Below, in pieces: positions 1,339 to 17,909 of a DNA stretch of 64,000 bases (the first letter of the stretch is position 1; every line of letters begins with the position of its first letter). Below the pieces are notes generated by a model. That model did not search any database and was not told the origin of the DNA. It worked only from the letters and a program-made list of their open reading frames with translations. Location of the stretch: assembly GCA_963842525.1 (NCBI GenBank), contig CAWJGT010000025.1:256001-320000 (forward strand), read 5' to 3'. This DNA is from an uncultured Holophagales bacterium (GTDB lineage: Bacteria; Acidobacteriota; Thermoanaerobaculia; Multivoradales; UBA5704). The translations under genes were made by a program, and so were the position numbers.

Positions 1339-1341
1339 TCT

Positions 1342-2015: not shown

Positions 2016-2237
2016 CCCTAAAGCGCCAAGAAAACCCAAGCCCTTGCCCCTCCAGTCTCGGCGGAAGCGGGTCCACCGCGGGAAACACCTGATCGACACA
2101 TCGCAGGAGCGCTGACCGGGAGGCTTCGTCTGGTCCTAACCAAGAAACTACCCAAGAACCGAACTAGGTGGCTGGCACCCCGGCTGGCTGGGCACACCCT
2201 GTTCAAGAAACGCCGCCGCGGTATCTAACCCTCGCGG

Positions 2238-2632
2238 TGGATCTGCGGCTTCGCCAATGCGGAAGGTGGTGTGCTGGTCATCGGACGCGTTGACCGAGGC
2301 GTAGCCGTCGGGTTGCCGGCCTGGTTGCCCCGGAAGTCACCGAGGAAGCTACAGGCAAAACGCCGGTAGAAACTGGCAAAACGCCGGTAGAAACTGGCAA
2401 AACGCCGGTAGAAACTGGCAAAACGCCGGTAGAAACTGGGAAAATGCCGGTAGAAACCGAAGAGACGCCGGTAGAAACGCCGGACAGGATCGTCGAGCTG
2501 CTTCGTGCAAATCCGTACATGACCCTGGCCGAGGTGGCCGAGGAGATCGGTAAGTCACAGAGGGCCGTGGAGACCGCCAAATTGGTCGGTGAGGGGCGGC
2601 TTCGCTACGTGGGTCCCCGTAAAAGTGGCCGC
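2238..2632 (+). pseudogene. Internally deleted paralog of the AlbA_2/HATPase/wHTH gene
   Basis: WICGFANAEGGVLVIGR (AlbA_2 N-terminus, cf. ~6550) is joined out of frame to a GKTPVET-repeat linker and a wHTH (IVELLRANPYMTLAEVAEEIG...LRYVGPRKSG). Confidence 0.75.
2354..2479 (+). repeat. 21-nt tandem repeat GGCAAAACGCCGGTAGAAACT, 4 exact + 2 degenerate copies
   Basis: Units at 2354, 2375, 2396, 2417, 2438, 2459; encodes GKTPVET heptads. Confidence 0.95.
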
Positions 2633-2870
2633 GCAAGGCAGAGGCTCGAAGCGGCATAGGACCGTTCCCAACGTACAGCTCGGTCGTACGAGTGTCAAGA
2701 GGGAATCGTACGCCCTGAAGTGCGCCAAGAAACCCAAGCCCTTGACCCTCCAGGGCTTAGCGCGTTTTTTATCGGACCCTATGGGGCTGCCCGAACTAGG
2801 TGGCTGGCACCCCGGCCACCTGCACCTACTTACCTTGACGCGGTCTGCTCCATGGAACACAATAGTTTCC

Positions 2871-3113
2871 ATGATTACGACGGTCACCCAGAAGAACATG
2901 GTCACAATACCCGCCGAAGTAGGACGAAAGTTTGGGATCAAGCCTGGGTGGAGGCTCGACTGGCAGCCGGTGGAAGGCAAAGACGAAATTCTCGTCAGGG
3001 TCATTCCCGATCGCGGAGAGCGTGCGCGCCGCCTGCTGGGTTCCGGTCGCAGGTTCTCACCGGATCGCGACTCCGTGGCCGAGCTTGTGGCAGAGCGCGC
3101 TACGGAAGGTTGA
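2871..3113 (+). CDS. AbrB/MazE/SpoVT-family antitoxin (copy 2)
   Basis: MITTVTQKNMVTIPAEVGRKFGIKPG; lies upstream of an intact PIN gene. Confidence 0.9.
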   Translation: MITTVTQKNMVTIPAEVGRKFGIKPGWRLDWQPVEGKDEILVRVIPDRGERARRLLGSGRRFSPDRDSVAELVAERATEG

Positions 3114-3119
3114 TGGGCC

Positions 3120-3539
3120 GTGCGCTTCCTGCTCGATACCTCCGCACTACTTGCCCACTTCCGCAAGGAGCACGGTGGTGCTCGCGTCCAAACGTTGTTC
3201 GAGGAGGGCGACTCCGAGATCCTGGCTGCCAGTATCTCGCTGACCGAGTTTGCCCGGCGTCTGCGCGAGCTGGGCGCAACGGTCGATGAGGCTCGCCGTA
3301 CGGTTGAGGACTACCGAGAGTTGCTGGACGAGGTCGTCTCGGTCGATGAAAAAGTGGCTCTCACCGCCTTCTATATCGTCTGCGAAATGACGGAGCGGCT
3401 ACCCCTTGCCGACGCTCTGATCACAGCGGCCGCTCGCGAACGGGAGGCCCGCCTGGTTCACCGCGATCACCACATGGCGACGATTCCGGCCAGCGTTGTG
3501 GAGCAGATCGACCTCGCGAAGGAACCGGACCCGCGGTGA
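3120..3539 (+). CDS. vapC: PIN-domain VapC toxin
   Basis: FLLDTSALL ... SLTEF ... LPLADALITAAA ... LVHRDHH. Confidence 0.9.
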   Translation: MRFLLDTSALLAHFRKEHGGARVQTLFEEGDSEILAASISLTEFARRLRELGATVDEARRTVEDYRELLDEVVSVDEKVALTAFYIVCEMTERLPLADALITAAAREREARLVHRDHHMATIPASVVEQIDLAKEPDPR

Positions 3540-3731
3540 GGGGCTAATGCCTGTTCACCTCTTCGCCCTGGCCCCGCGTCCGGCGCAGCTTGAGGCCGAA
3601 GATAAGGAGCGCGCCCAAATCTGCCGCTGCAGTTGCCCTTGGGTCAACTGGCTTCCGCTGAAGGGTAGGACTATACTTTTAGCATGAGCCTGCCGAACAG
3701 GTGGAATCTCAAACCGGAAAGGCTAATACCG

Positions 3732-3944
3732 ATGAAACCATTTGTCGCAAGATTTGGGCGTTCAATCTCGCCCAAGACAGCCGGATTTCGCTCCGTGCGG
3801 TACGATGTCGAACGAGAGAGTACTGTGCTAGCCGAAAATTCTCTTCTCGCTATTGAGTCTCCCAACGTCCTATCTGAGGCTACGGGCAGTATGTGCACGA
3901 GAGCTGACGAAGATCCTACGGCTGATGAGGCAACAGACCGGTAA
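3732..3944 (+). CDS. Graspetide (ATP-grasp RiPP) precursor peptide A
   Basis: PFVARF leader (cf. microviridin PFFARFL), YDxExE motif, core TGSMCTRADEDPTADEATDR; upstream of the ATP-grasp ligase; alternative start 3684. Confidence 0.85.
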   Translation: MKPFVARFGRSISPKTAGFRSVRYDVERESTVLAENSLLAIESPNVLSEATGSMCTRADEDPTADEATDR

Positions 3945-3962
3945 TCTGGGAAGGAGAGCAAT

Positions 3963-4166
3963 ATGCGGCCTTTTATAGCGCGATATGCAGTAGCCCCAGA
4001 TCGAAATCCAATTCCCTCGCTGTACAACTACGATCCTGAGCAAGAAATTAGCGTCTCTCGAGGTGAGCCAGTCATCGGAGATCGAGCGCAAGCCATGGCG
4101 CTCACGGGAAGCTTGGTCACCTTGGCTGATAGAGACCCTACTCGGGATGAGGCAACAGACAGGTAA
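3963..4166 (+). CDS. Graspetide precursor peptide B
   Basis: PFIARY leader, YDPEQE, core TGSLVTLADRDPTRDEATDR; stop overlaps the ligase start (TAATG). Confidence 0.88.
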   Translation: MRPFIARYAVAPDRNPIPSLYNYDPEQEISVSRGEPVIGDRAQAMALTGSLVTLADRDPTRDEATDR

Positions 4167-5131
4167 TGATTCTTATAGTTTCCAATACGCAGGACATCAC
4201 ATGTGATTTCGTTGTAAGAGAACTTCGCAGACGGCACAGAGACTTTGCTCGGCTAAACATGGACGAATTTCCTCGGCTCGCGTCAGGTGTTGCAACGGCC
4301 GGAACGGGATTTCCCGAGCGAGCCGAGATAAGATGGTCTAATAGACATAAAGTCCTACGCTTCAGTGATGTCAGCTCTGTTCTCTATCGGAGGCCGGTGC
4401 CGCCCGTACCAGACGATGCCATCCAAGACGAAGCGCTCAGAAAATTCTGTACCGATGAGAGTTATGATTTCTTGCGGGGGCTTTTATTTTCATTGGATTG
4501 TCACTGGATCAGCCATCCAGATGCAATCAGAAGAGCGGAGCACAAACTATACCAAGCTAGAATCGCCAGCAAGGTCGGTCTTACAATGCCACGGACTCTT
4601 GTAACCAACGACCCTGATGAGGTCTTGGGCTTCTTCGATGCATGCTCTGGTAGAATGGTCGCAAAGTGTTTATACATGGGCTTTATCGACAGCAAGAAAG
4701 CCCCGGCAATGATTTTCACCAGTAACGTATCAAGAGAGGATCTTGATGATGTGGAATCGGTTCGGTTTACTCCGACTATATTTCAAGAGTATGTTGACAA
4801 GGAATTCGATTTGCGGGTGACAATAGTAGGTGAGAAGGTTTTTACTGCAAGAATTGACGCAGCGACTCCTCCGGGTACACCAGACTGGCGAGCCTGCGGT
4901 CCCGAGGAACTTTGTCACTCTCCGTACTCTCTACCAGCTTCAATAGAGCGAGCGTGCATCGACTTAGTCCATCTTCTTGAGCTTGACTTTGGCGCGATTG
5001 ATCTTGCAGTAGATAAAGAGGGGAATTTCTTCTTCCTGGAGATTAATCCCAACGGTCAATGGGCATGGCTGGAGGCGATACTTCCAATCAGCGCAGCTCT
5101 CGTGGACCGACTTGAGGAACTGGGGAGATGA
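4166..5131 (+). CDS. MvdC/MvdD-family ATP-grasp RiPP maturase
   Basis: AEHKLYQ, PRTLVTND, IFQEYVDKEFDLRVTIVG, DWR, FGAIDL, FLEINPNGQWAWLE. Confidence 0.92.
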   Translation: MILIVSNTQDITCDFVVRELRRRHRDFARLNMDEFPRLASGVATAGTGFPERAEIRWSNRHKVLRFSDVSSVLYRRPVPPVPDDAIQDEALRKFCTDESYDFLRGLLFSLDCHWISHPDAIRRAEHKLYQARIASKVGLTMPRTLVTNDPDEVLGFFDACSGRMVAKCLYMGFIDSKKAPAMIFTSNVSREDLDDVESVRFTPTIFQEYVDKEFDLRVTIVGEKVFTARIDAATPPGTPDWRACGPEELCHSPYSLPASIERACIDLVHLLELDFGAIDLAVDKEGNFFFLEINPNGQWAWLEAILPISAALVDRLEELGR

Positions 5132-6063
5132 GGTTTACTCGTTACCTTGGCAGGCTACTGCTGAATTTGAAAGGTCGGCTTCCACTAAACGGAGATTGGC
5201 TATTTGTAACTGAAAGCGTTTCAGGCGAGAAGCAGATTGATGCCGCCGATGAATATCAGGCGCCGAGCATGGTGCTGAAACTATTATCTGGGACTGTCAC
5301 GCCCGAGACAACCAAGCTAATATACGAGAGGGTGAAATCCTATGAGGGCACTGTAAACGATATTGCAAATAGGGTCTATGATAAGTCGAAGGTAATTTTT
5401 GGCGCTGCTTCCTTTGCATCAACTATAATTCTGGCTCTTGGATCGACACTCCTTCCTCCCTTGCTCGTGAGCTCAGTTTGGCTCAGAGTCGTCGGCGCCG
5501 CATTGTCGTTCTTTCTTGTTTTTCACCTTAGTCGAGCGTTGATCATCGCGGCCGAGGTTATGATAAGAGAGCTCATGGTCCGCGAAACGCCAGGAGAGCT
5601 GATAGAGTTGGGCGAGAATGATGAAGGCGGCGCTCTTAGAGAGCTGATTGCGAAAGTATTGGCGTATGCGATCCAGACTCAAACACTTGGCCTTGAAAAG
5701 CTCAATCGGCTGATTATTGCGCAACATTCTTTTCGATATGCACTAGTATTTTATTTCGCATTGGCGGTGCTCAGCGTTGTCGTACGTCTTGGCGAAAGCA
5801 ATATTGAGGGTACTAGCGCAGGAGCGGTTGCCGAAGAGATAAAGGACTTGAAGAATAAGGTAGAGGCGACCAGCGCAAGGCAAGGGAAGCTAGCCTCGGC
5901 AGTGGATACTCTGGAGAAGGAACACGCGCTCATACAACGGGAACTGAGGGAATCTATTGAGTTGAGAAGGGCTGAGCTAGACTTTCTACGGATACTCGAG
6001 GCTCAACTAATGAGCGGGTTGGCCAACCGACAGCCTCCCGCTGCCACGAGAAAACAGCCCTGA
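5128..6063 (+). CDS. Hypothetical membrane protein (about 3 TM helices plus a C-terminal coiled coil)
   Basis: ATGA overlap with the ligase; hydrophobic segments; heptad-rich C-terminus; same AT-richer composition as the cassette. Confidence 0.75.
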   Translation: MRFTRYLGRLLLNLKGRLPLNGDWLFVTESVSGEKQIDAADEYQAPSMVLKLLSGTVTPETTKLIYERVKSYEGTVNDIANRVYDKSKVIFGAASFASTIILALGSTLLPPLLVSSVWLRVVGAALSFFLVFHLSRALIIAAEVMIRELMVRETPGELIELGENDEGGALRELIAKVLAYAIQTQTLGLEKLNRLIIAQHSFRYALVFYFALAVLSVVVRLGESNIEGTSAGAVAEEIKDLKNKVEATSARQGKLASAVDTLEKEHALIQRELRESIELRRAELDFLRILEAQLMSGLANRQPPAATRKQP

Positions 6064-6099
6064 AGCTGTTTTTTGAATACATTCTACCCTCCACGCGAG

Positions 6100-6160
6100 C
6101 GACCCGCCGGTCTACGATTTTGGCAGGGCAGGCTTGATGCTGACCTTCCGGGCTGCCCCC
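6100..6160 (+). pseudogene. Fragment duplicated from the AlbA_2/HATPase gene
   Basis: GACCCGCCGGTCTACGATTTTGGCAGGGCAGGCTTGATGCTGACCTTCCG closely matches 7532-7581. Confidence 0.7.
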
Positions 6161-6490
6161 AATACGTTCCACCCGTTCCCATCCCAGCCCGGCAAGACGG
6201 TCCGCTGCAGCGGGGTGGCGGCAGTGCTGGGGCTGGTTGAGGGGAAACTGCCACGCGGGCACCTCGCCCGCTCGACCAGAGCGTCAAGTTCCCGGCTCAT
6301 GGCTTTTCACCTAGCACCGGCCGACATCCCCCGAACTCTGGTATCCTCATCCCAATACGGCTAACCGGTCGGCACCCGTATTCGGACTGCGCCGCCGACG
6401 CAGGATGGGGTTGGGCTGCGCAATGGTATGGACGCCGGCCGCCCCCTACGCGCCGATCAGGAGCCCGCTCACTGGGAGGATTCGCCTGGT

Positions 6491-7891
6491 ATGAAGGAAA
6501 GCCAGCAGGTCGAATGGAAGAGCTCGTGGCGTGACGAGTATCTGCGCTGGATCTGCGGCTTCGCCAATGCCGCGGGCGGTGTGCTGGTCCTCGGGCGGAA
6601 CGATAAGGGCGTAGCCGTCGGCGTGGACAATTCCCGCAAACTGCTGGAAGACCTGCCCAACAAGATCCGGGACGTGCTGGGCATCATGGCCGATGTCCAC
6701 CTCGTCAAGGAGGCGGGCAAGGAGCTGGTCGAAATCCACGTCGAGCCGTATCCCAGCCCCGTCAGCTACAAGGGGGAATACCACTACCGCAGCGGCAGCA
6801 CCAAGCAAGAGCTGAAGGGTCCGGCGCTGGAGCGGTTCCTGCTGAAGAAGCGCGGGCGTCACTGGGATGATGCGCCGGAGCCCTCGTTCACCGCACGATC
6901 ATGCAGCGCGGCAGCCTTGCGGCTGTTCAGGCAAAGGGCTGCAAAGAGCGGGCGCATGGACCCGATGGTGTTACGAGACAGCCGGGAGGTCGTTCTCGGC
7001 AACCTGGAGCTGGCCGAAAGGCATGGCCTCAAGCGCGCCGCCTGCCTGCTGTTCTCCGACCGCCCCGAGCAGTATGTGAGCGGCTCCTGGATCAAGATCG
7101 GCTTCTTCGTGACGGATGACGACCTCCGCTACCAAGACGAGGTGCACGGGAGCCTCTTCGAGCAGGTGGAAAAGACTCTCGAGCTCCTGCACACGAAGTA
7201 TCTCAAGGCCTACATCAGCTACCAGGGCTTGCATCGGCGGGAGACCTTCCTCTTCCCAACTGCCGCACTGCGCGAGGCCCTGCTCAACGCCGTGGTGCAC
7301 AAGGACTACAGCAGCGGCATCCCCATCCAGATCAGCGTGTATGACGATCAGATCGTCCTCTGGAATCCCGGTGACCTGCCGGAGAACTGGACGCTGAAAA
7401 AGCTGCTGGGCAAACACCCGTCCTGTCCCTTCAACCCACTGGTGGCGAATGCCTTCTTCCGGGCCGGCTACATCGAATCCTGGGGACGTGGCATCGAGAA
7501 GATCCACCGCGAGTGCCGGGAGCACGGGATCGATCCGCCGGTCTACGATTTCGGCATGGCGGGCCTGATGCTGACCTTCCGCGCCGACCCTGCGCACCTG
7601 CAAGCCTCTGCTCCGGAACTGGGCAGGGGCACTACCCCAATCACTACCCAAGAAACCGCCGGTACTACCCAAGAAACTACCCAAGAAACCGCCGGTACTA
7701 CCCAAGAAACTACCCAAGAAAGGGTTCTTGCTTTGTTGCGTGCCCAACCCTCGATTACTCGAAGGGAACTGGCAGGTAGACTGGGCTTAAGCGACAATGG
7801 CATCAAGTACCACTTGGAGAGGATGAAGACTGCCGGAGTGATTCGCCACGTGGGCGCAACCAAGTCCGGAAATTGGGAGGTCCTGAAGTGA
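6491..7891 (+). CDS. AlbA_2 (Schlafen-like) + HATPase_c_4 (RecG-C-like) + wHTH protein
   Basis: ESQQVEWKSSW, ICGFANAAGGVLVLG, ALREALLNAVVHKDY, IESWGRGI, TTQETAG repeats, C-terminal wHTH. Confidence 0.9.
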   Translation: MKESQQVEWKSSWRDEYLRWICGFANAAGGVLVLGRNDKGVAVGVDNSRKLLEDLPNKIRDVLGIMADVHLVKEAGKELVEIHVEPYPSPVSYKGEYHYRSGSTKQELKGPALERFLLKKRGRHWDDAPEPSFTARSCSAAALRLFRQRAAKSGRMDPMVLRDSREVVLGNLELAERHGLKRAACLLFSDRPEQYVSGSWIKIGFFVTDDDLRYQDEVHGSLFEQVEKTLELLHTKYLKAYISYQGLHRRETFLFPTAALREALLNAVVHKDYSSGIPIQISVYDDQIVLWNPGDLPENWTLKKLLGKHPSCPFNPLVANAFFRAGYIESWGRGIEKIHRECREHGIDPPVYDFGMAGLMLTFRADPAHLQASAPELGRGTTPITTQETAGTTQETTQETAGTTQETTQERVLALLRAQPSITRRELAGRLGLSDNGIKYHLERMKTAGVIRHVGATKSGNWEVLK

Positions 7892-7906
7892 CCCTCGCGC
7901 AGACAT

Positions 7907-8234
7907 GACCTGCGACGTAAGGCAGCGGACCTGCGGGCGTGCAGAAGCGGACCCGCAGGTCCGTCCACATGACCCGCAGGTCAGCCCTCGTGACCCGCAG
8001 CTTCGTCAGCCGGCCCTGCAGGTCAGCCTGCGCGACCTGCGGGTCAACCCACTTGCCCCGCGCGTCAACCCGTGTGACCCGCAGGTTGGAGTGCGTGACC
8101 CGCAGGTCAGCCCGAGTGACCTGCGGGTCCATCCACGCACGCCGCAGGTCCGTCAGCGCACGCCGCAGGTCCGTCGGCGCACGCCGCAGGTCCGTCGGCG
8201 CACGCCGCAGGTCCGTCGGCGCACGCCGCAGCGG
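7907..8234. repeat. 21-nt-period array with quasi-palindromic core GACC(C/T)GC(A/G)GGTC, about 16 units
   Basis: Cores at 7907, 7928, then every 21 nt from 7950 to 8223; later units become ACGCCGCAGGTCCGTCGGCGC. Confidence 0.9.
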
Positions 8235-8525
8235 CTACACCGCATGGAGCACGATCTCCGCCGGATCTTCCGGGCTCTTCAGGATGCGTACGATCTGGGT
8301 GCGTAGACGCACCGGGTCCGCCGGTGGCTGCTCCAGGTCCGTCCACAGGGCGAACCACCTGCCGCCAAAGCAGACGACCTGCAACGCAGCCTCGTCGGGC
8401 GTGTACGCGGCCGTGGCATCGGCCGGGCTGAACTGGATCTGAACGACGCGGTCGTACAGTCGCCGGCGCAGCGCTTCGCTGAACCGATCGAGGTCCAACA
8501 GGATAGACTGGGACACGTCGGGCAT
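8235..8525 (-). CDS. Small hypothetical protein (96 aa)
   Basis: AGGAGG RBS before ATG 8525; MPDVSQSILLDLDRFSEALRRRLYDRVVQ...; divergent from the XRE gene. Confidence 0.65.
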   Translation of the reverse strand: MPDVSQSILLDLDRFSEALRRRLYDRVVQIQFSPADATAAYTPDEAALQVVCFGGRWFALWTDLEQPPADPVRLRTQIVRILKSPEDPAEIVLHAV

Positions 8526-8750
8526 AGGCCCCTCCTCTGCTCGGCTGGGCCCCGGCGGATCTGCACTCCGCCGGGGCCGACTTGTTTCGAGCTCAGGCCC
8601 TCCTTCCGGGAGAGCCGCCTTGTCCGTTGTCGCCTCGAGGCAGCCACGAGTTCTCGCCATCGAGAACCGAAAGCACTTATAGCAGGTGATCCCGATTTGA
8701 GTCAATGGGACCGGAAATGGTATCCTCGATCCAACCGGAGGAGGATGACC

Positions 8751-9290
8751 ATGAGCCCGAAGCGAGACACCGAGGATCCTGTTCGGCAGGAGGTCGACCG
8801 CCTGATGGAGATGCTCCTCATCTTCGTCCGCACCCTGGGGTATGGCAACACGGAGATCGCGCGGCGGTCCAAGGTCCCGCACGCCAACGTTGGGAGGTAC
8901 TTCCGCGGGGAGTCCCGGGTGCCGCTCGACGTCGTGATCGCGGTCGTCCACGGGATCGGGCTGGACTTCGGAGAGTTCTTCGAGCTGGCCTATGCCGAGC
9001 AGCCGGCGGAGCCCACCGCGGCCCGGAAGAAGATCGAGCGCATCCTGCAGATCCTTCCCCTCCGGCATGCCGCTCCGGTGGAGCCGCCCGTCACCGCTGC
9101 GCAGCCGGAGCAGCGTCCGTCGCTGCCGCGCCCGGAGATCGAGAAGGTACTCGAAGACCTCCGGAAGGAGGTGAACGCCCTGCTCGACGCCCGCCAGGCC
9201 GGCAAGGCCGTCGCCACACCGCCCAAGCCGAAGGCCGGCCCCAAGCCCTCGAAGCCGAAATCCGGGAAGAAGCGCAACGACGAGAGCTGA
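8751..9290 (+). CDS. XRE-family HTH transcriptional regulator
   Basis: GYGNTEIARRSKVPHANVGRYFRGESRVPLDVVIAVVHGIG HTH; GGAGGAGG RBS. Confidence 0.8.
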   Translation: MSPKRDTEDPVRQEVDRLMEMLLIFVRTLGYGNTEIARRSKVPHANVGRYFRGESRVPLDVVIAVVHGIGLDFGEFFELAYAEQPAEPTAARKKIERILQILPLRHAAPVEPPVTAAQPEQRPSLPRPEIEKVLEDLRKEVNALLDARQAGKAVATPPKPKAGPKPSKPKSGKKRNDES

Positions 9291-9356
9291 GCGGGGAGAG
9301 AGCGGGTCAGGTCCGTGGCTCGTCGTCCGAGTTTTGCCGGCCGTTGCAATCCCGGC

Positions 9357-10006
9357 TTACCGGAAGTGCCGCGGGCCGATCTGACGCTCTTTGCGCCGGA
9401 TGTGCGCGACCGTAGCCTCGATCATGTCCGGTGTCACAGCGCGGCGCCGGAAGAGCTCTTCGAGGAGTATCACTGAGGTCATGAATTCGCGATAGATTTC
9501 GATGGTCGCGAAGATCTCCCCCGCCGCCACAACCTCCTGCTCCGCGACATCGAGCTTGTCCTGGCTCAGGAGGACCATGGCGAGTTCCAGACGAGTAAGA
9601 GCCAGTGAGAACGGAAGGTCGGCCTCGGTGAAGCCCTTCTTCGCGTCGTTTAACGGACCATCTCCCTCTTGTCCTGGAAGCGAACGGCCCAGCTCCGCAT
9701 GAGGAGGGCTTCGTAGACGCCGAGCCCAGCCAGCGGAAGATTGCCGTCCCGCATCAGAGCCCGGACATCCCCTCCCGAGGCAAGAAGGGTCTGCGCCTTC
9801 CGGTACCGGGCGCGTTCGCTGATGGAAAGCTGCTGCAGGGAGCGAACGTGGAGGGGCGTGTCGAGCGCCACCTCATCACGAAGGTCCAGGTCGGAGGGCG
9901 CTGGCGGGCCTCCGCCCGTGGGCTGACCGCCCCACTGCTCGAACGAGTCGAGCGAAAGATCATCCTCTGCCCCTTCGCCGTGTGCGACGTGGTCTCGTTC
10001 GCTCAA
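9357..10006 (-). pseudogene. Internally deleted helical-repeat (TPR-like) protein
   Basis: N-terminal part (…YEALLMRSWAVRFQDKREMVR*) abuts, out of frame at about 9650, a C-terminal helical part (NDAKKGFTEADLPFSLALTRLELAMVLLSQ…AEQEVVAAGEIF). Confidence 0.55.
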
Positions 10007-10116
10007 ATGGCGCCTCCTTGATGGGCGTGCATTTTCTCATATGGTGGGGAGGTTTTGAAGTCCCGCTCGAAAGGCGAGGCGGCTGAGCTCGCCGCCCCTC
10101 GTACCGGCTGAGGAGC

Positions 10117-10401
10117 TTAACCGCCGTTTGGGTCGATGCCGGGCCCTTCATCGCCTGGTGTCGTGCCACCGTTCGGGGCAACGCCTCCTTGAGCTCCTGG
10201 GGTGGCTTCCCCTCCTGCCGTGGGAGCCTCGCTCCAGGACCACAGAGCGGAGATCCCCTTCTCCCAGAGGCTGTCGAACCAGTCCCAGACGTGGACGGGA
10301 TTGGCGAGCTTGGCGGCTTGCGCCTGGGCGGGGCCGGCGAACGCCAGGCACGAGGCGAGGATTCCCACGAGCACGAGGCGAGAGAGATTGCGACGAGTCA
10401 T
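10117..10401 (-). CDS. Small secreted peptide precursor (94 aa) ending DEGPGIDPNGG
   Basis: GGAGGAGGA RBS; signal peptide ending AQA; Trp-rich helix; Gly/Pro linker. Confidence 0.75.
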   Translation of the reverse strand: MTRRNLSRLVLVGILASCLAFAGPAQAQAAKLANPVHVWDWFDSLWEKGISALWSWSEAPTAGGEATPGAQGGVAPNGGTTPGDEGPGIDPNGG

Positions 10402-10818
10402 ACCTGTCCTCCTCCGCCGCGGAACGAGCCGGGCCCGCATGGTCCGGCGCCCGCGGACGCGGCGTCTGTTGTCTGCCGTCGTGCCGCAGTCTGACAGCGT
10501 GCAGGGCGTCCATGCGGCGGCGGACTCTCCATGCCACTTAGGTGCTCTCCGGCCGGCAGGAGGGGACGGCGTTACGCGTAAGCGTTAAACCGACGCGAAG
10601 ATCGTGGCCTCTATGCGGTGCCTTGTAACCGTTGCACACAATCTTCAGAAAATACGTTCAACCCTGTTGACAACCCGCCCGTTTCTGCTAGAGTGACCTC
10701 TCTGAACGGTTTTGATCCGACAGAGCCATGAAGGCAATGAGCAGCGGAATTGAAAATTCGGGTGAATGACCCTTCCGGAGCCACTGACGGCCCGGATTTT
10801 TCCGAAAGGAGAAGCAGT

Positions 10819-11139
10819 ATGGATACGAAGCAGGTTTTCACGCAGCAGGGCGGTGTCGAGACGGGGCTGAAGGCGGAGCGGGTGCAGGAGCCGCTCGCGG
10901 CCACGCAGGCGTTCACACCTGGACTGGAGCTCCATCTCAAGGCGGAGCGGGTGCAGGAGCCGGCGTCGTTCGGGGCGGAGGCCAACGTGAGCTACAGCTA
11001 CGAGGTCACCGTCAATCAGCTCCAGCCGGTGACGATCGAGCTGCCTCTGTTCGTCGTCACTCTCCATGGACTTCCCGCCTGGGGTATCCCCGGCGGGCCG
11101 ACCGAGGCCGTGCCCGCTGCCGCGGGCCGGCGGGGATGA
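10819..11139 (+). CDS. Small hypothetical protein with duplicated LKAERVQEP motif
   Basis: AAAGGAG RBS; motif repeated at about 10867 and 10936. Confidence 0.65.
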   Translation: MDTKQVFTQQGGVETGLKAERVQEPLAATQAFTPGLELHLKAERVQEPASFGAEANVSYSYEVTVNQLQPVTIELPLFVVTLHGLPAWGIPGGPTEAVPAAAGRRG

Positions 11140-11152
11140 AAGGAGGAAGGTT

Positions 11153-11530
11153 ATGCCCAGCATCAATTCGTTCGCCGACGTCCTGCGCGACTGGGAGGCG
11201 CTGCTTGCCGCGCTGCAGGATCATCCGGGGGTCCTGGTCACCCTCGAAGCCGAGCGGCTGGATCTGGAAGCGGATCTGGCGGCGGCGCGGGTCCTCAAGG
11301 CGCGCCAGGAGACGCAGACGGCCAGCCGGCAGGAGGTGACGCAGCAGATCAAGGCGGTGGTGAGCCACGGCAAGGGAGTGGCGATCGGGATTCGGGCCGT
11401 GGTGAAGGGCAAGATCGGGTATCGCAACGAACGGCTGGTCCAGTTCAAAGTGGCCCCGTCCCGCAAGCGGCCGCGCAAGCCGCCGGAGGTCGAGCCCACC
11501 GAGGAGGCCGCCGGTCCGGATGAGTCCTGA
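11153..11530 (+). CDS. Hypothetical helical protein (paralog 1)
   Basis: AAAGGAGG RBS; shares DWxxLL and G(K/R)(I/L)GYRNExLVxFxVAP with 11598-11969. Confidence 0.8.
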   Translation: MPSINSFADVLRDWEALLAALQDHPGVLVTLEAERLDLEADLAAARVLKARQETQTASRQEVTQQIKAVVSHGKGVAIGIRAVVKGKIGYRNERLVQFKVAPSRKRPRKPPEVEPTEEAAGPDES

Positions 11531-11537
11531 ACAACCC

Positions 11538-11566
11538 GGGGGCGTGCTCCGGCACGCCCCCTTTTT
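11538..11566 (+). terminator. Rho-independent terminator
   Basis: GGGGGCGTGC-TCCG-GCACGCCCCC-TTTTT. Confidence 0.85.
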
Positions 11567-11597
11567 CTGAATGCATCCTCAACAGAAAGGAACGAAT

Positions 11598-11969
11598 ATG
11601 CCAAAGAAAGCCTTGCAGGACTTCGTCGCAGACTGGGATGGCCTGCTCAGCGAGCTCCGAGCGACGACGTACGACATTCCGGACATCGAGCCCTTCCGCA
11701 TCGCCCTGGAAAAGGCTGTCCGGAAGACACGGGTCGCCAAGACCCGGCAGATGGCGTGCCAGATCGCCAGCCGGCTGGCGACGCGCTGGTTGGCCGAGGC
11801 GGTGGAAGAGGGCCGCGATGCGGCCATCGGGATGCGCTCCTATCTGAGGGGCCGCCTCGGCTACCGCAACGAGGATCTGGTCCGCTTCGGGGTGGCCCCG
11901 GTCCGCAAGCGCAAGCCGCGCGCCACACGCAAACCCACGCCGCCGAGCGTGGACCCCGCGGTCCACTGA
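11598..11969 (+). CDS. Hypothetical helical protein (paralog 2)
   Basis: AGAAAGGA RBS; GRLGYRNEDLVRFGVAPVRKR. Confidence 0.8.
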   Translation: MPKKALQDFVADWDGLLSELRATTYDIPDIEPFRIALEKAVRKTRVAKTRQMACQIASRLATRWLAEAVEEGRDAAIGMRSYLRGRLGYRNEDLVRFGVAPVRKRKPRATRKPTPPSVDPAVH

Positions 11970-11986
11970 TCTCCCCTCACCACCCC

Positions 11987-12014
11987 GGGGGCGTGCTCCG
12001 GCACGCTCTCCTTT
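11987..12014 (+). terminator. Terminator (copy of 11538-11566)
   Basis: GGGGGCGTGC-TCCG-GCACGCTCTCC-TTT. Confidence 0.7.
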
Positions 12015-12049
12015 GCCCCAGAACCTGGCAAGGATCAGGGTCAACGGAG

Positions 12050-13132
12050 TCACTCGATCGTCTGTGTGTTGACCTCAAGGCCGCTCGCTTCTCTCTTGAC
12101 CGGCTTCTCCCAGCGGACGCAGACCTCGATTCCCAGATGCGGAGCTGGCCACCGCAGCCAGTAGAAGAGGAAGCGCTGGGGCAGCTTCAGCGAAGAGGCT
12201 ATTTCGGCCCTGGCTGCCTCCGAGACCTGCTTGCCGGCGGCCGCATCACGCTCGAGAATGGCAGTGGCTCGTTGCTTGAGCCGGCGGACGCGGTTCAGCA
12301 TCTCGTCTGCTCCTTCGTCAGAGGCTCGGCCGAACCGTTCCTGGATGGAGATTTCGGGCAAGAGGGCGACTTCCTTACCCTCGAAACGGGCGGACTCCCG
12401 ATTGCGGAACTCCAAGGCAAGGTTGGCGATCTCGTCCTCCGGGATGTCTGTGAAGGCGAACAGATCCAGGTCGACAACGACGCAGACCTCAAGCTCGGAG
12501 GTCGGGATATCGATGGGGATGTCGAAGCGATCGAAGACAGGGGTCTTCGGCTCCTTCCACTGGACGTAATCGTGGAGCCCCAAGGTGATCTCGCGGGTCA
12601 GGAACCGGCCGCTGAGCGCATGAACGGCCAGGTCGGCGTTCTTGTAGGTCGTACCCACCGTGTCGACGTAGGAGCCGAGCGGCGGCGGCTCGAAGTCCTG
12701 AAGATGATCGGCGGACTTCTTGCCGTTCCAGACAGCGAAATAATTGAGCAACCACTGCTCCTTGAACCACTCGTACTCGCCCGTCTCGGGGCGGGGCTCG
12801 CTCTCCCGGTACGTCCGATGATAGGATTCGCGCTTCTCGGGCTTCATCTCGACGAAGCAGGGGAGCTTCTCACGAGGGGAGTTCAGGCGGAGGATCTCGA
12901 CTTGGCGGGAGAAGATGTTTCCTTCCCGGGTGACATAGACGGTATGGCGCGCAGACCGGCAGACATAGGGGGAATGCCTCCACTTGGCGGCAGTGGCGGC
13001 GACCATCTCCCGGATTACCGCCGAGTGCCGGCCCCGGGCATCCTTGGAACCCTGCTCCTGGGCGAGCTCTCCTACAAGGTCCCATAGGGATGAAGACATG
13101 CGGATCTGGCAGGTACGCTCGTTACGAGGCAT
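12050..13132 (-). CDS. Hypothetical protein with possible N-terminal ribbon-helix-helix domain
   Basis: AAGGAG RBS; RTCQIRMSSSLWDLVGELAQEQG...SAVIREMV beta-alpha-alpha pattern, then about 300 aa of unknown domain. Confidence 0.7.
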   Translation of the reverse strand: MPRNERTCQIRMSSSLWDLVGELAQEQGSKDARGRHSAVIREMVAATAAKWRHSPYVCRSARHTVYVTREGNIFSRQVEILRLNSPREKLPCFVEMKPEKRESYHRTYRESEPRPETGEYEWFKEQWLLNYFAVWNGKKSADHLQDFEPPPLGSYVDTVGTTYKNADLAVHALSGRFLTREITLGLHDYVQWKEPKTPVFDRFDIPIDIPTSELEVCVVVDLDLFAFTDIPEDEIANLALEFRNRESARFEGKEVALLPEISIQERFGRASDEGADEMLNRVRRLKQRATAILERDAAAGKQVSEAARAEIASSLKLPQRFLFYWLRWPAPHLGIEVCVRWEKPVKREASGLEVNTQTIE

Positions 13133-13219
13133 GCTCTCTCCTTGAAGCGGGAGGAATTGTACCCCAGATTTGTCAAGACGTTCCTGGGCGACAGTTTTCG
13201 GGCATAATTCCGAAGTCAT

Positions 13220-13267
13220 CCTGGCGCTTGACAGTGATTCAGAACCTGGCGCTTGACAGTGATTCAG
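13220..13267. repeat. 23-nt direct repeat (25-nt period) containing TTGACA
   Basis: CCTGGCGCTTGACAGTGATTCAG at 13220 and 13245, between divergent genes. Confidence 0.85.
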
Positions 13268-13473
13268 GATATGATCTGCTAGAAGAGTGATGGCCTTCTC
13301 GATGAGGGGAGGGTCTGTGTGGGTTGACGGCTGGCGAGGGCCTTTGATATGGTCTGAAATCGCCTGTCGAAGTGTTGTCTAACCGAACGTAATGGCGCCG
13401 GGCCATCGGCGTCTTTCTGCCAAATGCCGTCGCCGACGCGACTGGGCGGCTGGACGTAGAAGGGGCTGAGAGA

Positions 13474-14031
13474 ATGAACAACAGGTACCTGAAGCTAGCT
13501 GCGATTCTGCTGTTGCTGGTGGCCGTCGACGTTCGTGCGCAGTTCGCGGTGCCAAAGTCGAACGAAGTGGTGGAAGGCGAGCTTGTGCTCCCGGACGGTG
13601 GTGGCACTGCCCACTTCTTTGCCCGCGAGGGGGCCATGGTTACCGTCCGGAGCGAAGAAGAGCAGGGTTACTGGTACGGCATTGTGCCCGTCATCGACAA
13701 AGGCCAGGTGGCTTTCTCCGTTTTCGAGCTGACCTCCCGCGGTGATGATCCCCCTGCCATTCGGGAAATCGCTTCCGGGATGAAGGGGCGCCTCAATGAG
13801 GCGGTGGAGGTTGATGTCCTCCAAGGCACTTTTCAAGTGAAGGCTTTGGATATCCAAACTTGGCGCTTTACTAAAGTTCGTCTGGTGGATCCCAGGGGAG
13901 CGAGCCCGGCCGCCCTTCAAAAGCTCTACGGAGCCTCCGGAGGAGGTCTGTGCTCTGTGTCTTGCGGCACTGTCACGATTACTGCGACCTCTGTGAAGGC
14001 GTCGTGCGGGACCTGTCAAGGCGATCGGTAG
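13474..14031 (+). CDS. Secreted protein with Cys-rich C-terminal tail (paralog 1)
   Basis: Signal peptide ending VRA; tail LQKLYGASGGGLCSVSCGTVTITATSVKASCGTC. Confidence 0.8.
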   Translation: MNNRYLKLAAILLLLVAVDVRAQFAVPKSNEVVEGELVLPDGGGTAHFFAREGAMVTVRSEEEQGYWYGIVPVIDKGQVAFSVFELTSRGDDPPAIREIASGMKGRLNEAVEVDVLQGTFQVKALDIQTWRFTKVRLVDPRGASPAALQKLYGASGGGLCSVSCGTVTITATSVKASCGTCQGDR

Positions 14032-14270
14032 CCGGCCTCCAGAAGCACATCCCCTACACAAGAAGAACAAGAAGACCAGCCGTCTCCATCGGAGCGGTTC
14101 AGGAATGCTTTCCCTAAACAGTCTTGCCCAAGAGCGTGTCTACATCTCTGGCCCACGAAGATCATTTAGGGGCTTGCGTTGACCGCAGGCCTTCATCTAC
14201 ACTAGGGTCTTCGTATTCGCAGCCCCTGACGAAGCTCTGGGAGATCACCGTTCTAGAGGTTTGCCTCCGG

Positions 14271-15928
14271 GTATCTGTTTACCGCCCTAGTGCCGCCTTC
14301 CCCGAGCGGTGGCACGTCCGCAAGGGCTTGAAGTTCTCTTCTCGGCATGGTCTAATGTCTTTCAGGCATGCCGACTTACGAGGAACTCCTTCAAGAGAAC
14401 TCTGAGCTTCGCCAAGACAACGGTGAGCTTCGCCAGCGGGTGGAGGAGCAGGAGCGCCAGATTGCGCACCTGAAGCGCCGAATCGTCGATCTGGAGAAAC
14501 TTGTCGAGGAGCTACGGCGCCGGGGCAAACGCCAGGCTGCCCCCTTCTCGAAGGGAGATCCGAGCGAGGATCCCAAGTCTCCAGGGCGCAAAGCCGGGGA
14601 TCAATATGGTCAGCAAGCGACTCGAGCTGTGCCCGATCACGTCGACGAAACCATCGTGGTGGAGTGCCCGCTGTATTGTGAGCACTGTGGGGGTCAGGTC
14701 ATTCCGCAGGGCGAAGCTCGCCAGTATCAGACCGATCTGCCGCCGATTCGGCCGGTGACGACGGAGTTCATCCTCCATTATGGGAAGTGCTCGGCATGTG
14801 GCCGGGAAGCTGTGGGGCGTCACCCGCGCCAGACTTCCCAGGCGTTCCGGGTCGGCAACGTGCAACTCGGTCCAAACGTGTTGGGGCTCGCCGCCTGGCT
14901 CAACAAGGTCGGAGGCTTGAGCTACGGCAAGATCGCCGCGTTGCTGAAGGAGCTGGCTGGACTGTCTGTGTCGCGCTCGGCCCTGTGCCGCGCGCTGCTT
15001 CGCATGAGTAAGAAGCTGGAGCCCTTGTACGAGGAGCTGAAGGCGAAGATCCGGAGCTCTCCTGTGGTGTACCCGGACGAGACGGGCTGGCGGGAGGGGG
15101 GCTATAGCGTGTGGTTGTGGGTGTTCACCAATCGCAGCGAGACGGTCTACAGCATCCAGCCGGGTCGTGGCTATGCCGAGGCCTCTGAGGTCCTGGGGGA
15201 GGGCTTTGTCGGCGTGCTGGTGGCTGATGGTTGGGCTCCCTATCAGAAATTTGAAGAAGCGACTCATCAGACCTGTCTGGCGCATCTGTTGCGCCGTTGC
15301 GAGGAGCTGCTGGAGAAGGCGACAGGGGGTGCGGTGCGCTTTCCTCGGGCGGTGAAAGAGATCCTGCAGGCCGCCTTGGAGGCGCGAGATCAGCGGGACG
15401 CGGGCAAGCTCAGCGGCGAGGCGCTGGAGAAGGTCAAGCAGGACTTGGAGCTTCCAGATGGAAAGGCGTCTGTCGGGGCAGTTCACGAACCCCGACAACC
15501 AGCGTCTGGCTCAGCATTTGATACGTCACCAGGAGCAGCTGTTTGTCTTCCTGGAACGCACGGATGTGGAGGCGACCAATTGGCCGGCCGAACAAGGGAT
15601 TCGCCCGGCGGTCATCAACCGCAAGACATCTGGGGGAAATCGGACGGCCGAGGGGTCCCAGGCGCAAGCGGTCTTGATGAGTGCCCTGCGCACATTTCAG
15701 CAACACCAAGTCGGGACACTCGAGATCTTGCCCCAGCTTCTGCGCAGCCCCCAGTCACCCAAGCTTGAGGCAATACTTCCTGCGTCACAGCCACCGTAAC
15801 AGTTCTCGCCACGAGTTATCCGTGGCTCCAGGTCGGTAGCCGCTCGCCCTCGTCAGGTCGCCTGGCCAGCGCGGACGTGTGTCCAGGGAAAACCTTCCCC
15901 AAAAGTGCCGCTGACGGTAAACAGATAC
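14271..15928 (+). mobile_element. IS66-family (single-ORF, ISBst12-like) insertion sequence
   Basis: Perfect 14-bp terminal IRs GTATCTGTTTACCG (14271-14284 / 15915-15928); 8-bp TSD GCCTCCGG at 14263-14270 and 15929-15936. Confidence 0.93.
14368..15799 (+). CDS. IS66 transposase, frameshifted at about 15454
   Basis: Coiled coil, CxxC zinc finger, DETGW, ADGW, CLAHLLR; continues in another frame with ATNWPAEQGIRPAVINRKTSGG. Confidence 0.9.
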
Positions 15929-15991
15929 GCCTCCGGTTGGGAGACTACCGGGGAGCACACTTGTGTGCGCCAACGCTCTTGGGAGGAAAAC

Positions 15992-16570
15992 ATGTCGAGA
16001 CATGCGCTGTTGTGGGGAACGCTGGTTCTTTGGCTGTTGGTTCTGCCTCTCCCCTCTTTAGGACAAGCCTTCTCCGTTCCCATCTCTGACCGGGTTGTAG
16101 AGGGGGATCTCGCAATGCCGGACGGAAGCGCCGCGCATTTTACGGTTCGCGAAGGCTCGATGCTGACCGTCCGTAGCGAAGACGACGGGTATTGGTACGG
16201 GTTCATTCCCCAGGTGGTTCAAGGGGAGACGCTTCTCCTTACCCCCTTTGAGATTACTGAGATCAAGGGCCGCGCGCCCCATATCGCTCAAATTGGTAGT
16301 CCTATCGGTCAGGCTGACACCCTATCTCTAGAAGTTCCAACAAAAGACGGGACATTTCAGATTTCTCCCACATCAATTTCCCTCGGAAGCTTTCCGCGGC
16401 AAAAATTGGTAGAAATGAACAGCAAGTCGCCTCGCGAGCTTCAAAAGATATTTGGCGCTTCTGGAGGCGGCCTGTGCTGTGTAACCTGCGGCGGAATCAC
16501 TGTCTGTGGTGGGTCTGTTGTTATGTCGTGCGGTTCATGCGAAAGCGGCGGAGGCCGTCCGGCTGTGTAA
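15992..16570 (+). CDS. Secreted protein with Cys-rich C-terminal tail (paralog 2)
   Basis: GGAGG RBS; signal peptide; VVEGDLAMPDGSAAHFTVREG similar to paralog 1; tail CCVTCGGITVCGGSVVMSCGSC. Confidence 0.8.
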   Translation: MSRHALLWGTLVLWLLVLPLPSLGQAFSVPISDRVVEGDLAMPDGSAAHFTVREGSMLTVRSEDDGYWYGFIPQVVQGETLLLTPFEITEIKGRAPHIAQIGSPIGQADTLSLEVPTKDGTFQISPTSISLGSFPRQKLVEMNSKSPRELQKIFGASGGGLCCVTCGGITVCGGSVVMSCGSCESGGGRPAV

Positions 16571-16598
16571 ACCTGGCTGACGGCCAAGGATTTTCACG

Positions 16599-17909
16599 AT
16601 GAGAATCAAATGGTGGTGGCGTCTTTGTGCATTTGTTCTTGCAGTCATCATTCTCATCTCCTTGGCTGTCCAGATTTGGCGGTCGGAAAGGTATTTGAGC
16701 TTTGAGGGAACGAGGATTCTCGCAAGCGGTAAGCCCCTAGACATGTGGTTCTCCTCTCCCAGGCATCTCGTGGCCCTGGTTATCAAGAATTTCGTGGTGA
16801 CTGTGAAGCACTGGGATCTTCCCCGTAAAGAGACAGTAAGAGAATCTGTCTTTGACTTTAGCCGAGTAGGGGAAGGCAGAGAAATTAAACTGGACTATTC
16901 GCTGTTCCCGCGAACGACGGATCAGGGCCAGCGCTCCATTCCCTATGCGGTATCTCTCGATGGAGGTTTCATAGCTTGGGCGCGAGAAGGGAAAGTCTAC
17001 GCGAAAAATCTTGCTGATGATATCCAATCGTTCGAAGAAGTCGCGGTACTTGAACAGAACCCGACTGCTATCTATTTCGTGCGGGCGGACCTTTTGGCTA
17101 TCTTTCGCCGGGACGGTAAGGTGGAAGCATGGGATCGGAGAAAGAAAAAGAAAGGGCTGGCTGGGACTTGGCTTGATGGGCGATGGTCTATTTGGTCACA
17201 CGGTCCTGGCATCGCGTTGTCGTCCTTTGAAACAAGGGACATTGGCCGGATAGATTTTGATGAGACAGGGGATCATATTGACGCACGCTACCGCCAAGTT
17301 CCTTCCGAGAGGGGAACATTTCTTGCTATTAATGAAATAGGTTCCATGGCGGTCGGCACGGATCTGGGGCAGGTTCACTGGATTTCCACCCAAGAGACGG
17401 CATCGTCGCGAGAGGATGGGGGAGTATCGCCGGTTGATAGTGAGCCGGAAAAAACGCAGGTCGAGGATGCTGTTATCGCGTTGGCGTTCTACGATGACAG
17501 AAATCTCTTCGCCTTGCTTCGGAATGGCCGCTCATTTTTAATTTCGGATAGATTATTAAATGGTGAGGGAGTGCCGAATTCACCGCCAGCTAACCTGCTC
17601 AGCACAAGTAAAGAGTACTTGGCTCTTGCGGCGGGTGACCTAATCGAAGTGACTGAGTTGACCCTCAAGAGAAAATTGTCTTGGAGCAGGGTCAATATTA
17701 TATTGACAATCCTGCTGGTGCTCTGCGCCGCAGTGGTCGTTTGGCCCACTAAAAGACTTTTAACCATTCAGAAGGTTTTATTGATAGCTACGCTGGTTGC
17801 GGGGATTTTGTGGCTGTGCTTCGGTGATCCTAACGGTATTTACGAATCAATTGCGATTGTGTTGGGTGCAATTTTTTCGTTGACAGTTCTTGCGAGGGAA
17901 GTTTTCTAG
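16599..17909 (+). CDS. Membrane-anchored beta-propeller-like (WD40-like) hypothetical protein
   Basis: N-terminal TM, beta-rich repeats ([19 protein letters not shown]), three C-terminal hydrophobic helices; AT-richer DNA. Confidence 0.65.

Follow-up and report, generated by a model that had tools for sequence, protein, structure and literature searches.

A decayed copy of a heavily expanded peptide-TPR-HTH cassette in Thermoanaerobaculia and its possible role in peptide signalling

Does a small gene for an exported peptide, lying beside a broken tetratricopeptide repeat (TPR) gene and an XRE-type helix-turn-helix (HTH) gene in an acidobacterial genome, represent what is left of a peptide-signalling system? 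The question is raised by a locus at positions 8235 to 10401 of a 64,000-nucleotide stretch of DNA from an uncultured Holophagales bacterium, here termed the window (G000:C25:256001-320000, within a genome of 9.95 Mb in 34 contigs), for which a sequence-only reading had suggested an analogue of the RRNPP systems, in which a TPR receptor is paired with an exported propeptide. The window locus is a decayed copy of a cassette, in which the genes for the peptide and for the small HTH protein have stayed intact, and this cassette is lineage-specific and heavily expanded in one family of the Thermoanaerobaculia (Acidobacteriota).

The peptide gene is located at 10117..10401 on the minus strand and encodes an exported propeptide of 94 amino acids, whose translation matches the profile of its family (see below) with an E value of 5.9e-15. 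The corresponding open frame extends from 10117 to 10440 (107 amino acids), the 94-residue form being initiated at ATG 10401, directly behind a strong ribosome-binding site, GGAGGAGG; this start is favored because the alternative ATG at 10440 falls in the loop of an inverted repeat. The layout of the product is as the sequence-only reading had described it, comprising a basic N-terminus (MTRRNLSR), a hydrophobic core, the residues AQA, the Trp-rich segment VWDWFDSLWEKGISALWSW, which is read as an amphipathic helix, a Gly/Pro-rich spacer, and the end DEGPGIDPNGG, which represents a single C-terminal unit, DEGPGIDPNG(G). A Sec-type signal peptide with cleavage after AQA is expected from these features, the signal peptides of this protein and its paralogues having been judged by eye (basic N-terminus, hydrophobic core, and AxA-type site). 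Searches of Pfam and NCBIfam returned no family for the window peptide, and NCBIfam likewise returned none for two paralogous peptides. The coding score of the open reading frame (ORF) is low (6.0, by our own codon model), and a scan for the sigma-70 consensus yielded no promoter-like site on the strand of the gene.

A profile built from 25 paralogues of this peptide was applied to six-frame ORFs of the same genome, in which 79 ORFs reached E <= 1 and, of these, 64 reached E <= 2e-3, the window copy included. A start codon was assigned by our own rule to 60 of these 64 ORFs, representing 57 distinct peptides, with three identical pairs being copies at contig ends. Peptides with an assigned start range from 61 to 141 amino acids, mostly 80 to 115, and follow a common plan, in which a signal peptide is followed by an amphipathic helix of the type LWxxLTxxW and then by one to four units of the form D-x-G-x-x-[ILMV]-D-P-x-G, the final unit being positioned at the C-terminus or a few residues from it. 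In a 23-row alignment, the D-P-x-G columns are at least 90% conserved and the Trp-rich helix is among the best-conserved parts of the peptide; twin arginines are not conserved across the family. Conservation of the DPNG tail, on which the sequence-only reading depended, extends to two metagenome proteins homologous to the window peptide, at 54% and 57% identity, which end in GPGIDPNG and GPGIDPNGG.

Genes called up to four positions away from any of the 64 peptide genes were clustered, the calls being those of a codon log-odds caller trained on long ORFs, with approximate starts and short genes. The dominant cluster of neighbors is a single TPR family, represented by 104 genes or fragments at 61 of the 64 loci, and no other called gene intervenes between the peptide gene and its TPR partner in at least 48 placements (30 on the same strand and 18 on the opposite strand). 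Conversely, when 93 TPR loci (>=100 bits) were taken as the starting point, a match to the peptide profile was present within 500, 1000, and 2000 nucleotides at 67, 72, and 74 of them, respectively, and 3 further TPR "orphans" have divergent DPxG peptides which the profile had missed. The association with TPR and HTH genes that the sequence-only reading had anticipated is borne out, and the observation made in the window is more than chance, because the profile has 63 further matches in the genome, linked to this TPR family.

Two architectures of the cassette were apparent. In class 1, an XRE-type HTH domain is fused to the TPR region in a protein of 469 to 503 amino acids, whose gene is convergent with that of a peptide harboring a Cys loop, C-x-x-D-P-x-G-x-C. 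In class 2, to which the architecture of the window belongs, a CxxC-bearing TPR protein of 414 to 460 amino acids is encoded downstream of the peptide gene in the same direction, and a small HTH gene convergent with both frequently comes next. The N-termini of class-2 proteins contain a conserved His and, approximately 25 residues further on, the motif H-x4-C-x2-C, both Cys residues of which are invariant or nearly so; by hhalign, this N-terminus matched the class-1 region made up of HTH and linker with a probability of 93%. Intact TPR partners overall are 394 to 503 amino acids in length. Pfam matches of the TPR type (E <= 0.01; TPR_12, TPR_2, TPR_MalT, and others) were obtained for all 22 partners tested, and HTH_3 or HTH_31 was matched by 7 of 9 class-1 partners as opposed to 0 of 13 class-2 partners. 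Peptide type tracks receptor class: among the 57 distinct peptides, 17 with a Cys loop accompany class 1, 31 without a loop accompany class 2, and 3 with a Cys loop accompany class 2. For six, including that of the window, no partner scoring 100 bits or more lies within 1 kb.

The second intact gene of the window locus, at 8751..9290 on the plus strand, specifies a small XRE-type HTH protein of 179 amino acids with a Lys/Pro-rich tail and is convergent with the TPR remnant described below. Its match to Pfam HTH_3 is weak (E 0.006; 17 bits against a cut-off of 23), and its coding score is good (78.7, by the same codon model). It belongs to a cluster of 17 small HTH proteins (71 to 181 amino acids) encoded at 17 peptide loci, mostly as the second gene downstream and on the opposite strand, and the small XRE gene is thus a recurrent third component of class-2 cassettes and not a chance neighbor. 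A profile of these small HTH proteins aligned to the HTH region of the fused class-1 receptors with a probability of 95% (hhalign, E 3.7e-8). Because the DNA-binding module is fused to the TPR region in class 1 and is a separate protein in class 2, it is argued that TPR and HTH work together. The small XRE gene alone has a paralogue at the DNA level (87.5%) on another contig (G000:C7:24853-25484, matching window positions 8681-9315), which lies 67 kb from the closest peptide gene. The divergent partner which the sequence-only reading had placed beside the XRE gene exists, as a 97-amino-acid ORF at 8235..8526 on the minus strand without a match in Pfam or NCBIfam, but is not a general component: it has two weak homologues in the genome (E 1e-10 and 2e-7), located 1 nucleotide and 3.4 kb from peptide genes, and its membership in the cassette is doubtful.

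The broken helical-repeat gene lies downstream of the peptide gene on the same strand and converges on the XRE gene, as had been proposed, and both of its pieces belong to one TPR family. The N-terminal remnant of this class-2 (CxxC-type) gene, at 9653..10006 on the minus strand, resides within an ORF of 118 amino acids (9650..10006), of which positions 9653-9826 are the homologous part, while the C-terminal remnant, at 9357..9653 on the same strand, is in another frame and matches the class-2 profile with an E value of 3.3e-13. In the class-2 alignment, the N-terminal part covers columns 1-168 and the C-terminal part covers columns 391-495; the CxxC-bearing segment of intact relatives is absent from the N-terminal remnant. 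A blastx comparison with L049, an intact relative of 453 amino acids from the same genus, aligned positions 9826-9653 with residues 97-154 (52% identity) and positions 9653-9387 with residues 364-452, in frame 3 as opposed to frame 1. Relative to L049, residues ~155-363, ~209 amino acids corresponding to the central TPRs, have thus been deleted, with a frame shift near 9653, in keeping with the decayed receptor previously suggested. The remnants amount to ~118 and 98 amino acids, which is below the size of RRNPP receptors, unlike intact members of the family, and NCBIfam contains no family for them or for the window HTH protein. Since the window receptor lacks its central TPRs and is frameshifted, this copy is unable to sense by itself. 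The deletion junction is present in the data of the soil metagenome run X1, because a 151-nucleotide contig of that run, which may be the source sample of the genome, spans positions 9594-9744 with zero differences. Among the sequencing runs listed for positions 8200-10600, none is an RNA run.

No same-genus orthologue of the window peptide was found in 5 genomes at E <= 1e-8, save for three relatives of 37-46% identity in genome G004, where the intact order, peptide followed by class-2 TPR gene (376 and 389 bits), is observed. The closest paralogues of the window peptide in its own genome likewise show split partners or an internal stop.

At least two units are present in 37 of 56 unit-bearing proteins, and the seven variable positions of the unit are considerably more alike within a protein (identity 0.598 over 74 pairs) than between proteins (0.307 over 6031 pairs), a value which none of 2000 permutations reached. 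The same likeness is evident in homologues from other genomes, in which, for example, three copies of GCGIDP, of GCSVDP, or of GCMIDP/GCMLDP occur in one protein. Residues that are identical between units of one protein are specified by different codons at 164 of 525 positions (0.31, against 0.50 expected if the units were independent), and, because of these differences, the likeness cannot be ascribed to recent duplication or gene conversion only. This likeness fits selection acting on the peptide sequence. Such units were also observed in rare long secreted proteins from public metagenomes, P0062 (783 amino acids) and P0164 (669 amino acids), in which many x-x-D-P-N-G units, many of them followed by Lys or Arg, form an array between an N-terminal domain and a C-terminal region of VDEWDxEVVKRG repeats; by sequence, these proteins resemble polyprotein precursors of the x-x-D-P-N-G unit.

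Predicted structures of the intact receptors were compared with known folds by means of Foldseek and VIA-align. The class-2 model (pLDDT 89.7, pTM 0.76) and the class-1 model (pLDDT 87.4, pTM 0.73) both display an N-terminal helical domain, a long helix, and approximately eight to nine helix pairs, which form an all-helical superhelix. For class 1, the highest matches were RapJ-CSF (4gyo; Z 21.8, 297 aligned residues, root-mean-square deviation 3.9) and the Rap protein of phage phi3T with its pheromone (21.8), tied with the eukaryotic protein LGN (21.7) and RapF-PhrF (21.6) and followed by NprR (20.0-20.2). For class 2, a eukaryotic best match, considered below, is followed by NprR (5dbk; Z 21.6, 298 aligned residues, root-mean-square deviation 4.2), phi3T Rap with pheromone (20.3-20.9), and NprR-NprX (20.4). 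Rap and NprR are, therefore, the best-scoring bacterial structures for both models (Z 20-22 over ~300 residues), but they equal or trail LGN and exceed generic TPR proteins by only 2 to 3 Z units. What the match shows, at the level of predicted models, is a TPR superhelix of the kind that binds peptides, and it does not show kinship. Prediction of a complex between the class-2 receptor of locus L018 and residues 27-98 of its own peptide returned a score of 0.02 and a mark of 0.32, with an uncertain peptide fold and no controls, and is taken as evidence neither way.

The peptide profile has matches in 25 of 31 genomes, the window genome included; all 18 genomes of the same taxonomic family hold the peptide, with 8 to 55 matches each, and 6 of 12 genomes from other families of the order gave a match, which in 3 cases was a single weak one. 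None of 150 other genomes sampled evenly across the phylum, for which fewer candidates per genome were scored, gave a match at E <= 1e-5. A class-1 receptor was encoded beside the peptide at all 11 loci fetched from other genomes, these being the best peptide matches, a choice which favors class 1. One metagenome-assembled genome (MAG) named as a Thermoanaerobaculia bacterium harbors two loci with class-2 relatives at 57-59% identity, and at one of its loci, L029, the partner adjoins the peptide; MAGs of Thermoanaerobaculia are the closest named relatives of the window genome. In a collection of 5.8 billion proteins, the 59 matches scored were all named only "hypothetical protein" and none had a Pfam domain, their named source organisms being Acidobacteriota or Thermoanaerobaculia MAGs; among 1.84 billion cluster representatives, 3890 proteins matched the peptide profile at E <= 1e-3 and 1017 at E <= 1e-10. 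Phage and plasmid collections contained no match to a class-1 receptor. The literature searched, which did not extend to subscription journals and supplements, holds no account of such a system in Acidobacteriota or other diderm phyla.

Regulation of the peptide genes is possibly connected with a short element upstream of them. In the window, the leader region (10402..10448, minus strand) comprises GGAGGAGG and the inverted repeat GCCGGACC-ATGCG-GGCCCGGC at 10428-10448, ~43 nucleotides ahead of ATG 10401, which is the local version of a positional motif with the consensus GGCC-ATGGN-GGCC at -41 to -48 before many peptide starts. An exact GGCC-N5-GGCC is contained in 14 of the 57 regions upstream of peptide genes (in 13 of these at -41 to -48), compared to 126 of 5000 random 120-mers, and at least 10 of the 12 positions of the consensus are matched in 24 of 57 regions; one locus carries another stem with the same type of loop, CTGGTCA-ATGGC-TGACCAG. 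A hairpin as a general feature of these regions was considered and dropped, as stems of at least 6 are present in 26 of 57 peptide upstream regions and 160 of 514 neighboring genes, a slight excess only that is not clearly above these neighbors, and only the positional motif was retained. The GGCC-ATGGN-GGCC element may serve as an operator or a leader hairpin.

The locus is embedded in a GC-poor variable region, the 18 kb at window positions 1-18000 having 49-64% GC compared to ~67.5% for the genome. This region harbors PIN-domain genes at 1342-1737 (minus strand) and 3120-3539 (plus strand), a gene for an AlbA_2/HATPase_c_4/winged-HTH protein at 6428-7891, and an IS66-family transposase gene at 14368-15768. 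A likely graspetide cluster, graspetides being ATP-grasp-dependent members of the peptides that are made by the ribosome and modified after translation (RiPPs), is located at 3732-6063 on the plus strand within a segment of 49% GC. It consists of two precursor-like ORFs (3732-3944 and 3963-4166), which start with M(K/R)PF(V/I)AR(F/Y) and end with ...DP-T-x-DEATDR, a gene at 4166-5131 whose product is a pre-ATP-grasp protein of the MvdD type (Pfam PF21068, E 1.6e-10), and a gene at 5128-6063 for a 311-amino-acid protein without a Pfam match, all on the plus strand. Two abutting arrays of 21-bp tandem repeats are located at 7950-8231, one with 8.6 copies of GACCCGCAGGTCAGCCCGCGT (67% matches) and the other with 4.6 copies of CGCACGCCGCAGGTCCGTCGG (98% matches); arrays like these are also present on contigs C28, C12, and C11.

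Divergent from the peptide gene, a row of three genes at 10819-11969 (plus strand) encodes a 106-amino-acid protein, in which two LKAERVQEP repeats are present, and a pair of paralogous ~125-amino-acid proteins, none of which has a Pfam match; a sigma-70-like site at 10667-10694, the sole one found in the scan, precedes this row. The KAERVQE motif occurs at 13 sites of the genome, in ~10 loci, ~7 of which by reading lie within ~5 kb of peptide cassettes, and the family of the 125-amino-acid proteins has ~35 genome members, mostly distant from cassettes. The three genes could be targets of the cassette. Genes for SBP_bac_5 proteins number three in the genome, the one on C28 heading an Opp/Dpp-like five-gene operon, and none is a cassette component; two of the three lie near a TPR locus (~4 kb), which are too few cases to weigh. 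At G000:C9:401405-405072, the gene for such a protein adjoins that for a dCache-HAMP histidine kinase and has an intact class-2 cassette 3 kb downstream, and a second SBP_bac_5 gene is located ~2 kb from a TPR locus on C1.

How might an intact cassette operate? It encodes a putatively Sec-exported propeptide of ~60-140 amino acids, a cytoplasmic TPR protein of ~390-500 amino acids, and an XRE-type DNA-binding domain. The propeptide would be exported and cut into short unit peptides, those of class 1 probably being disulfide-closed C-x-x-D-P-x-G-x-C loops, which would then be re-imported and would dock on the concave side of their cognate TPR domain. Such docking would make the HTH, whether attached or encoded as a partner, more or less active, in the manner of the Bacillota systems Rap-Phr, NprR-NprX, and PlcR-PapR, and the few variable residues of the unit would confer on each cassette its own specificity. 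This sequence of export, processing, re-uptake, cognate TPR binding, and HTH control, which is drawn by analogy, is in our estimation about evenly balanced between being right and being wrong. The wider proposal, to which we accord somewhat less than even confidence, is that of a Thermoanaerobaculia peptide-pheromone system independent of RRNPP(A), with dozens of orthogonal channels per genome, in which a turn peptide with the pattern D-x-G-x-x-[IL]-D-P-x-G, closed into a loop by a disulfide in class 1, would be released from a multi-copy exported precursor and sensed by its own cytoplasmic TPR receptor, to which an XRE HTH is coupled; the rapid gain and loss of cassettes, that of the window being a dead one, would then result from diversifying selection, which in soil would favor communication in private or the discrimination of kin.

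Several points weigh against such a pheromone system. Peptide binding, processing, and re-import are inferred from the genes, and in a diderm cell the peptide has to cross the outer membrane twice, with no protease, exporter, or importer recurring beside the cassettes in the four-gene neighborhoods of the 64 loci. The invariant D-P-x-G leaves ~3-4 variable positions per unit for dozens of channels. The conserved Trp-rich helix hints at a membrane or other role, and we know of no such conserved amphipathic helix in RRNPP propeptides. Class-1 pairs are convergent, with gaps of 0-80 nucleotides, a layout which to our knowledge is unusual among known receptor-propeptide pairs. No sequence relation to RRNPP receptors was detected: Pfam returned only generic TPR and HTH models, a phmmer search of PDB chains gave 12 matches at E <= 1, none of them RRNPP, and a profile search of PDB had no Rap, NprR, or PlcR chain among the best 60 of 95 matches. 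As regards structure, the best match of the class-2 model is eukaryotic LGN/Pins (Z 24.3-26.8), LGN also ties for class 1, and the TPR fold is generic, with subunits of the anaphase-promoting complex/cyclosome (APC/C) and designed TPRs reaching Z 18-19. Finally, gene calls and start codons derive from our own simple caller, and approximately one-third of the TPR loci look fragmented or short, for which decay or assembly error is possible.

Some of these points would also suit an effector, the peptide being an output and not an input. The exported protein could be membrane-active or surface-bound via its Trp-rich helix, conserved as it is across the family, with the HTH-TPR protein acting as its dedicated regulator and sensing something else; neither the lack of a recurring transporter or protease nor a TPR fold that matches many non-pheromone TPR proteins equally well would then be surprising, and the positional upstream element fits regulated expression. 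We nevertheless regard this as rather unlikely, as it leaves unexplained why variable residues are the same within a protein despite synonymous divergence, why peptide type tracks receptor class, and why pairing is near-obligate in both directions over ~60 paralogues. Re-import across two membranes would also be unnecessary if the TPR protein, which is cytoplasmic (it has an HTH or no signal sequence), bound the Sec-signal-bearing precursor before its export, such that the cassette would report export or envelope state and not cell density. Type III secretion TPR chaperones, which bind substrates and co-activate transcription once freed, provide a precedent, and the separate DNA-binding partner of class 2 would be in line with it; ~60 parallel copies with diversified units are, however, hard to justify for one export pathway, and no secretion system is linked to the cassettes, making this explanation quite improbable.

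A further explanation would treat the units as core peptides of a RiPP precursor, to be matured by an enzyme such as the MvdD-like ATP-grasp protein 5 kb away, with the TPR and HTH proteins regulating the cluster. Multi-core precursors are typical of graspetides, whose leaders are of the PFFARFL type, and the ATP-grasp gene has three further paralogues in the genome, two of the four being within 5 kb of a peptide gene. The ATP-grasp gene of the window has its own two leader-bearing precursor-like ORFs directly upstream, however, on account of which its link to the cassette peptides was rejected; no ATP-grasp or maturase cluster recurs at the 64 loci, and the peptides carry Sec signal peptides, not RiPP leaders. 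We consider a RiPP role highly improbable. For the window copy by itself, the locus might simply be the leftovers of a dead cassette, in which expression or usefulness of the peptide gene has ceased: the receptor bears both the deletion and the frame shift, the coding score of the peptide ORF is low, the other members of the same subfamily in this genome also show split partners or an internal stop, and the surrounding region is GC-poor and carries the IS66 transposase and PIN genes. An intact peptide ORF with a strong ribosome-binding site and conserved tail, next to an intact small HTH gene of good coding score, speaks against this possibility, which is judged unlikely and in any case concerns only the window copy and not the family.

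Should the peptide-pheromone proposal hold, it would represent the first example from a diderm phylum of peptide quorum sensing that relies on a cytoplasmic receptor. An abundant, poorly cultured soil phylum would then hold a large unexplored code for communication or kin recognition, along with a natural library of orthogonal peptide-receptor pairs, and export and re-import of peptide signals in diderms would become directly testable. Three reports (PMC10075063, PMC12700828, and PMC11343458) regard peptide signalling via TPR receptors in the cytoplasm as a property of Gram-positive Bacillota and of their mobile elements; the present cassette resides in Acidobacteriota and is structurally analogous to the Bacillota systems and unrelated to them in sequence, with ~60 copies per genome and 3890 representative clusters in public data. 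The window provides a clear example of cassette decay, in which a receptor has been gutted by internal deletion beside an intact peptide gene.

The conserved His and H-x4-C-x2-C with which class-2 receptors start recall the zf-HC2 anti-sigma factors, in which the spacing of the motif is H-x3-C-x2-C. Besides this difference in spacing, the class-2 N-terminal domain aligns with the class-1 HTH region, Pfam zf-HC2 matched 3 of 10 class-2 N-termini at E 0.1-1.7, far under the cut-off of 22.2 bits, and no sigma-factor cluster was present among the neighbors of the 64 peptide loci; class-2 receptors were, therefore, rejected as zf-HC2 anti-sigma factors. The likeness of the class-2 model to LGN/Pins extends over ~300-325 aligned residues, the LGN entries listed being complexes of the TPR domain with partner proteins, but these proteins are eukaryotic, share 15-16% identity with it, and have no HTH or CxxC domain, so that the fold is shared while kinship is not demonstrable here.

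The closest overall resemblance is to RRNPP(A) systems (Rap-Phr, NprR-NprX, PlcR-PapR, and AimR-AimP), in which a small gene for a Sec-type propeptide likewise stands beside that of a cytoplasmic TPR receptor, which may or may not bear an XRE HTH at its N-terminus, and many diversified paralogues occur per genome. The signature of RRNPP systems, as outlined by Bernard et al. 2023 (PMC10075063), consists of a propeptide of 10-100 amino acids that is Sec-exported, a receptor of 250-500 amino acids with TPRs, and genes that are direct neighbors, and all five features are found in intact cassettes, the signal peptide being judged by eye. The sequence-only reading thus stands as regards the architecture and the decay of the receptor, a signalling function being so far only proposed. 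There are also differences: RRNPPA systems are placed in Bacillota in two reports (PMC12700828 and PMC11343458), as opposed to the diderm phylum Acidobacteriota for the cassette, whose receptors share no sequence family with those of RRNPP beyond generic TPR and HTH, whose propeptide combines a Trp-rich helix, itself conserved, with a D-P-x-G turn that is often closed by two Cys residues, whose class-1 pairs are convergent, which is present in ~60 copies per genome, for which the phage and plasmid collections gave no match, and whose function in signalling is putative. The closest parallel to the repeats of the cassette peptides is provided by the Rap-Phr propeptides of phages, which, according to PMC11343458, are tandemly duplicated and contain several putative mature peptide copies each; the cassette peptides are likewise multi-copy, with units alike within one protein, and these units are ~10 residues in length and are built around an invariant D-P-x-G.

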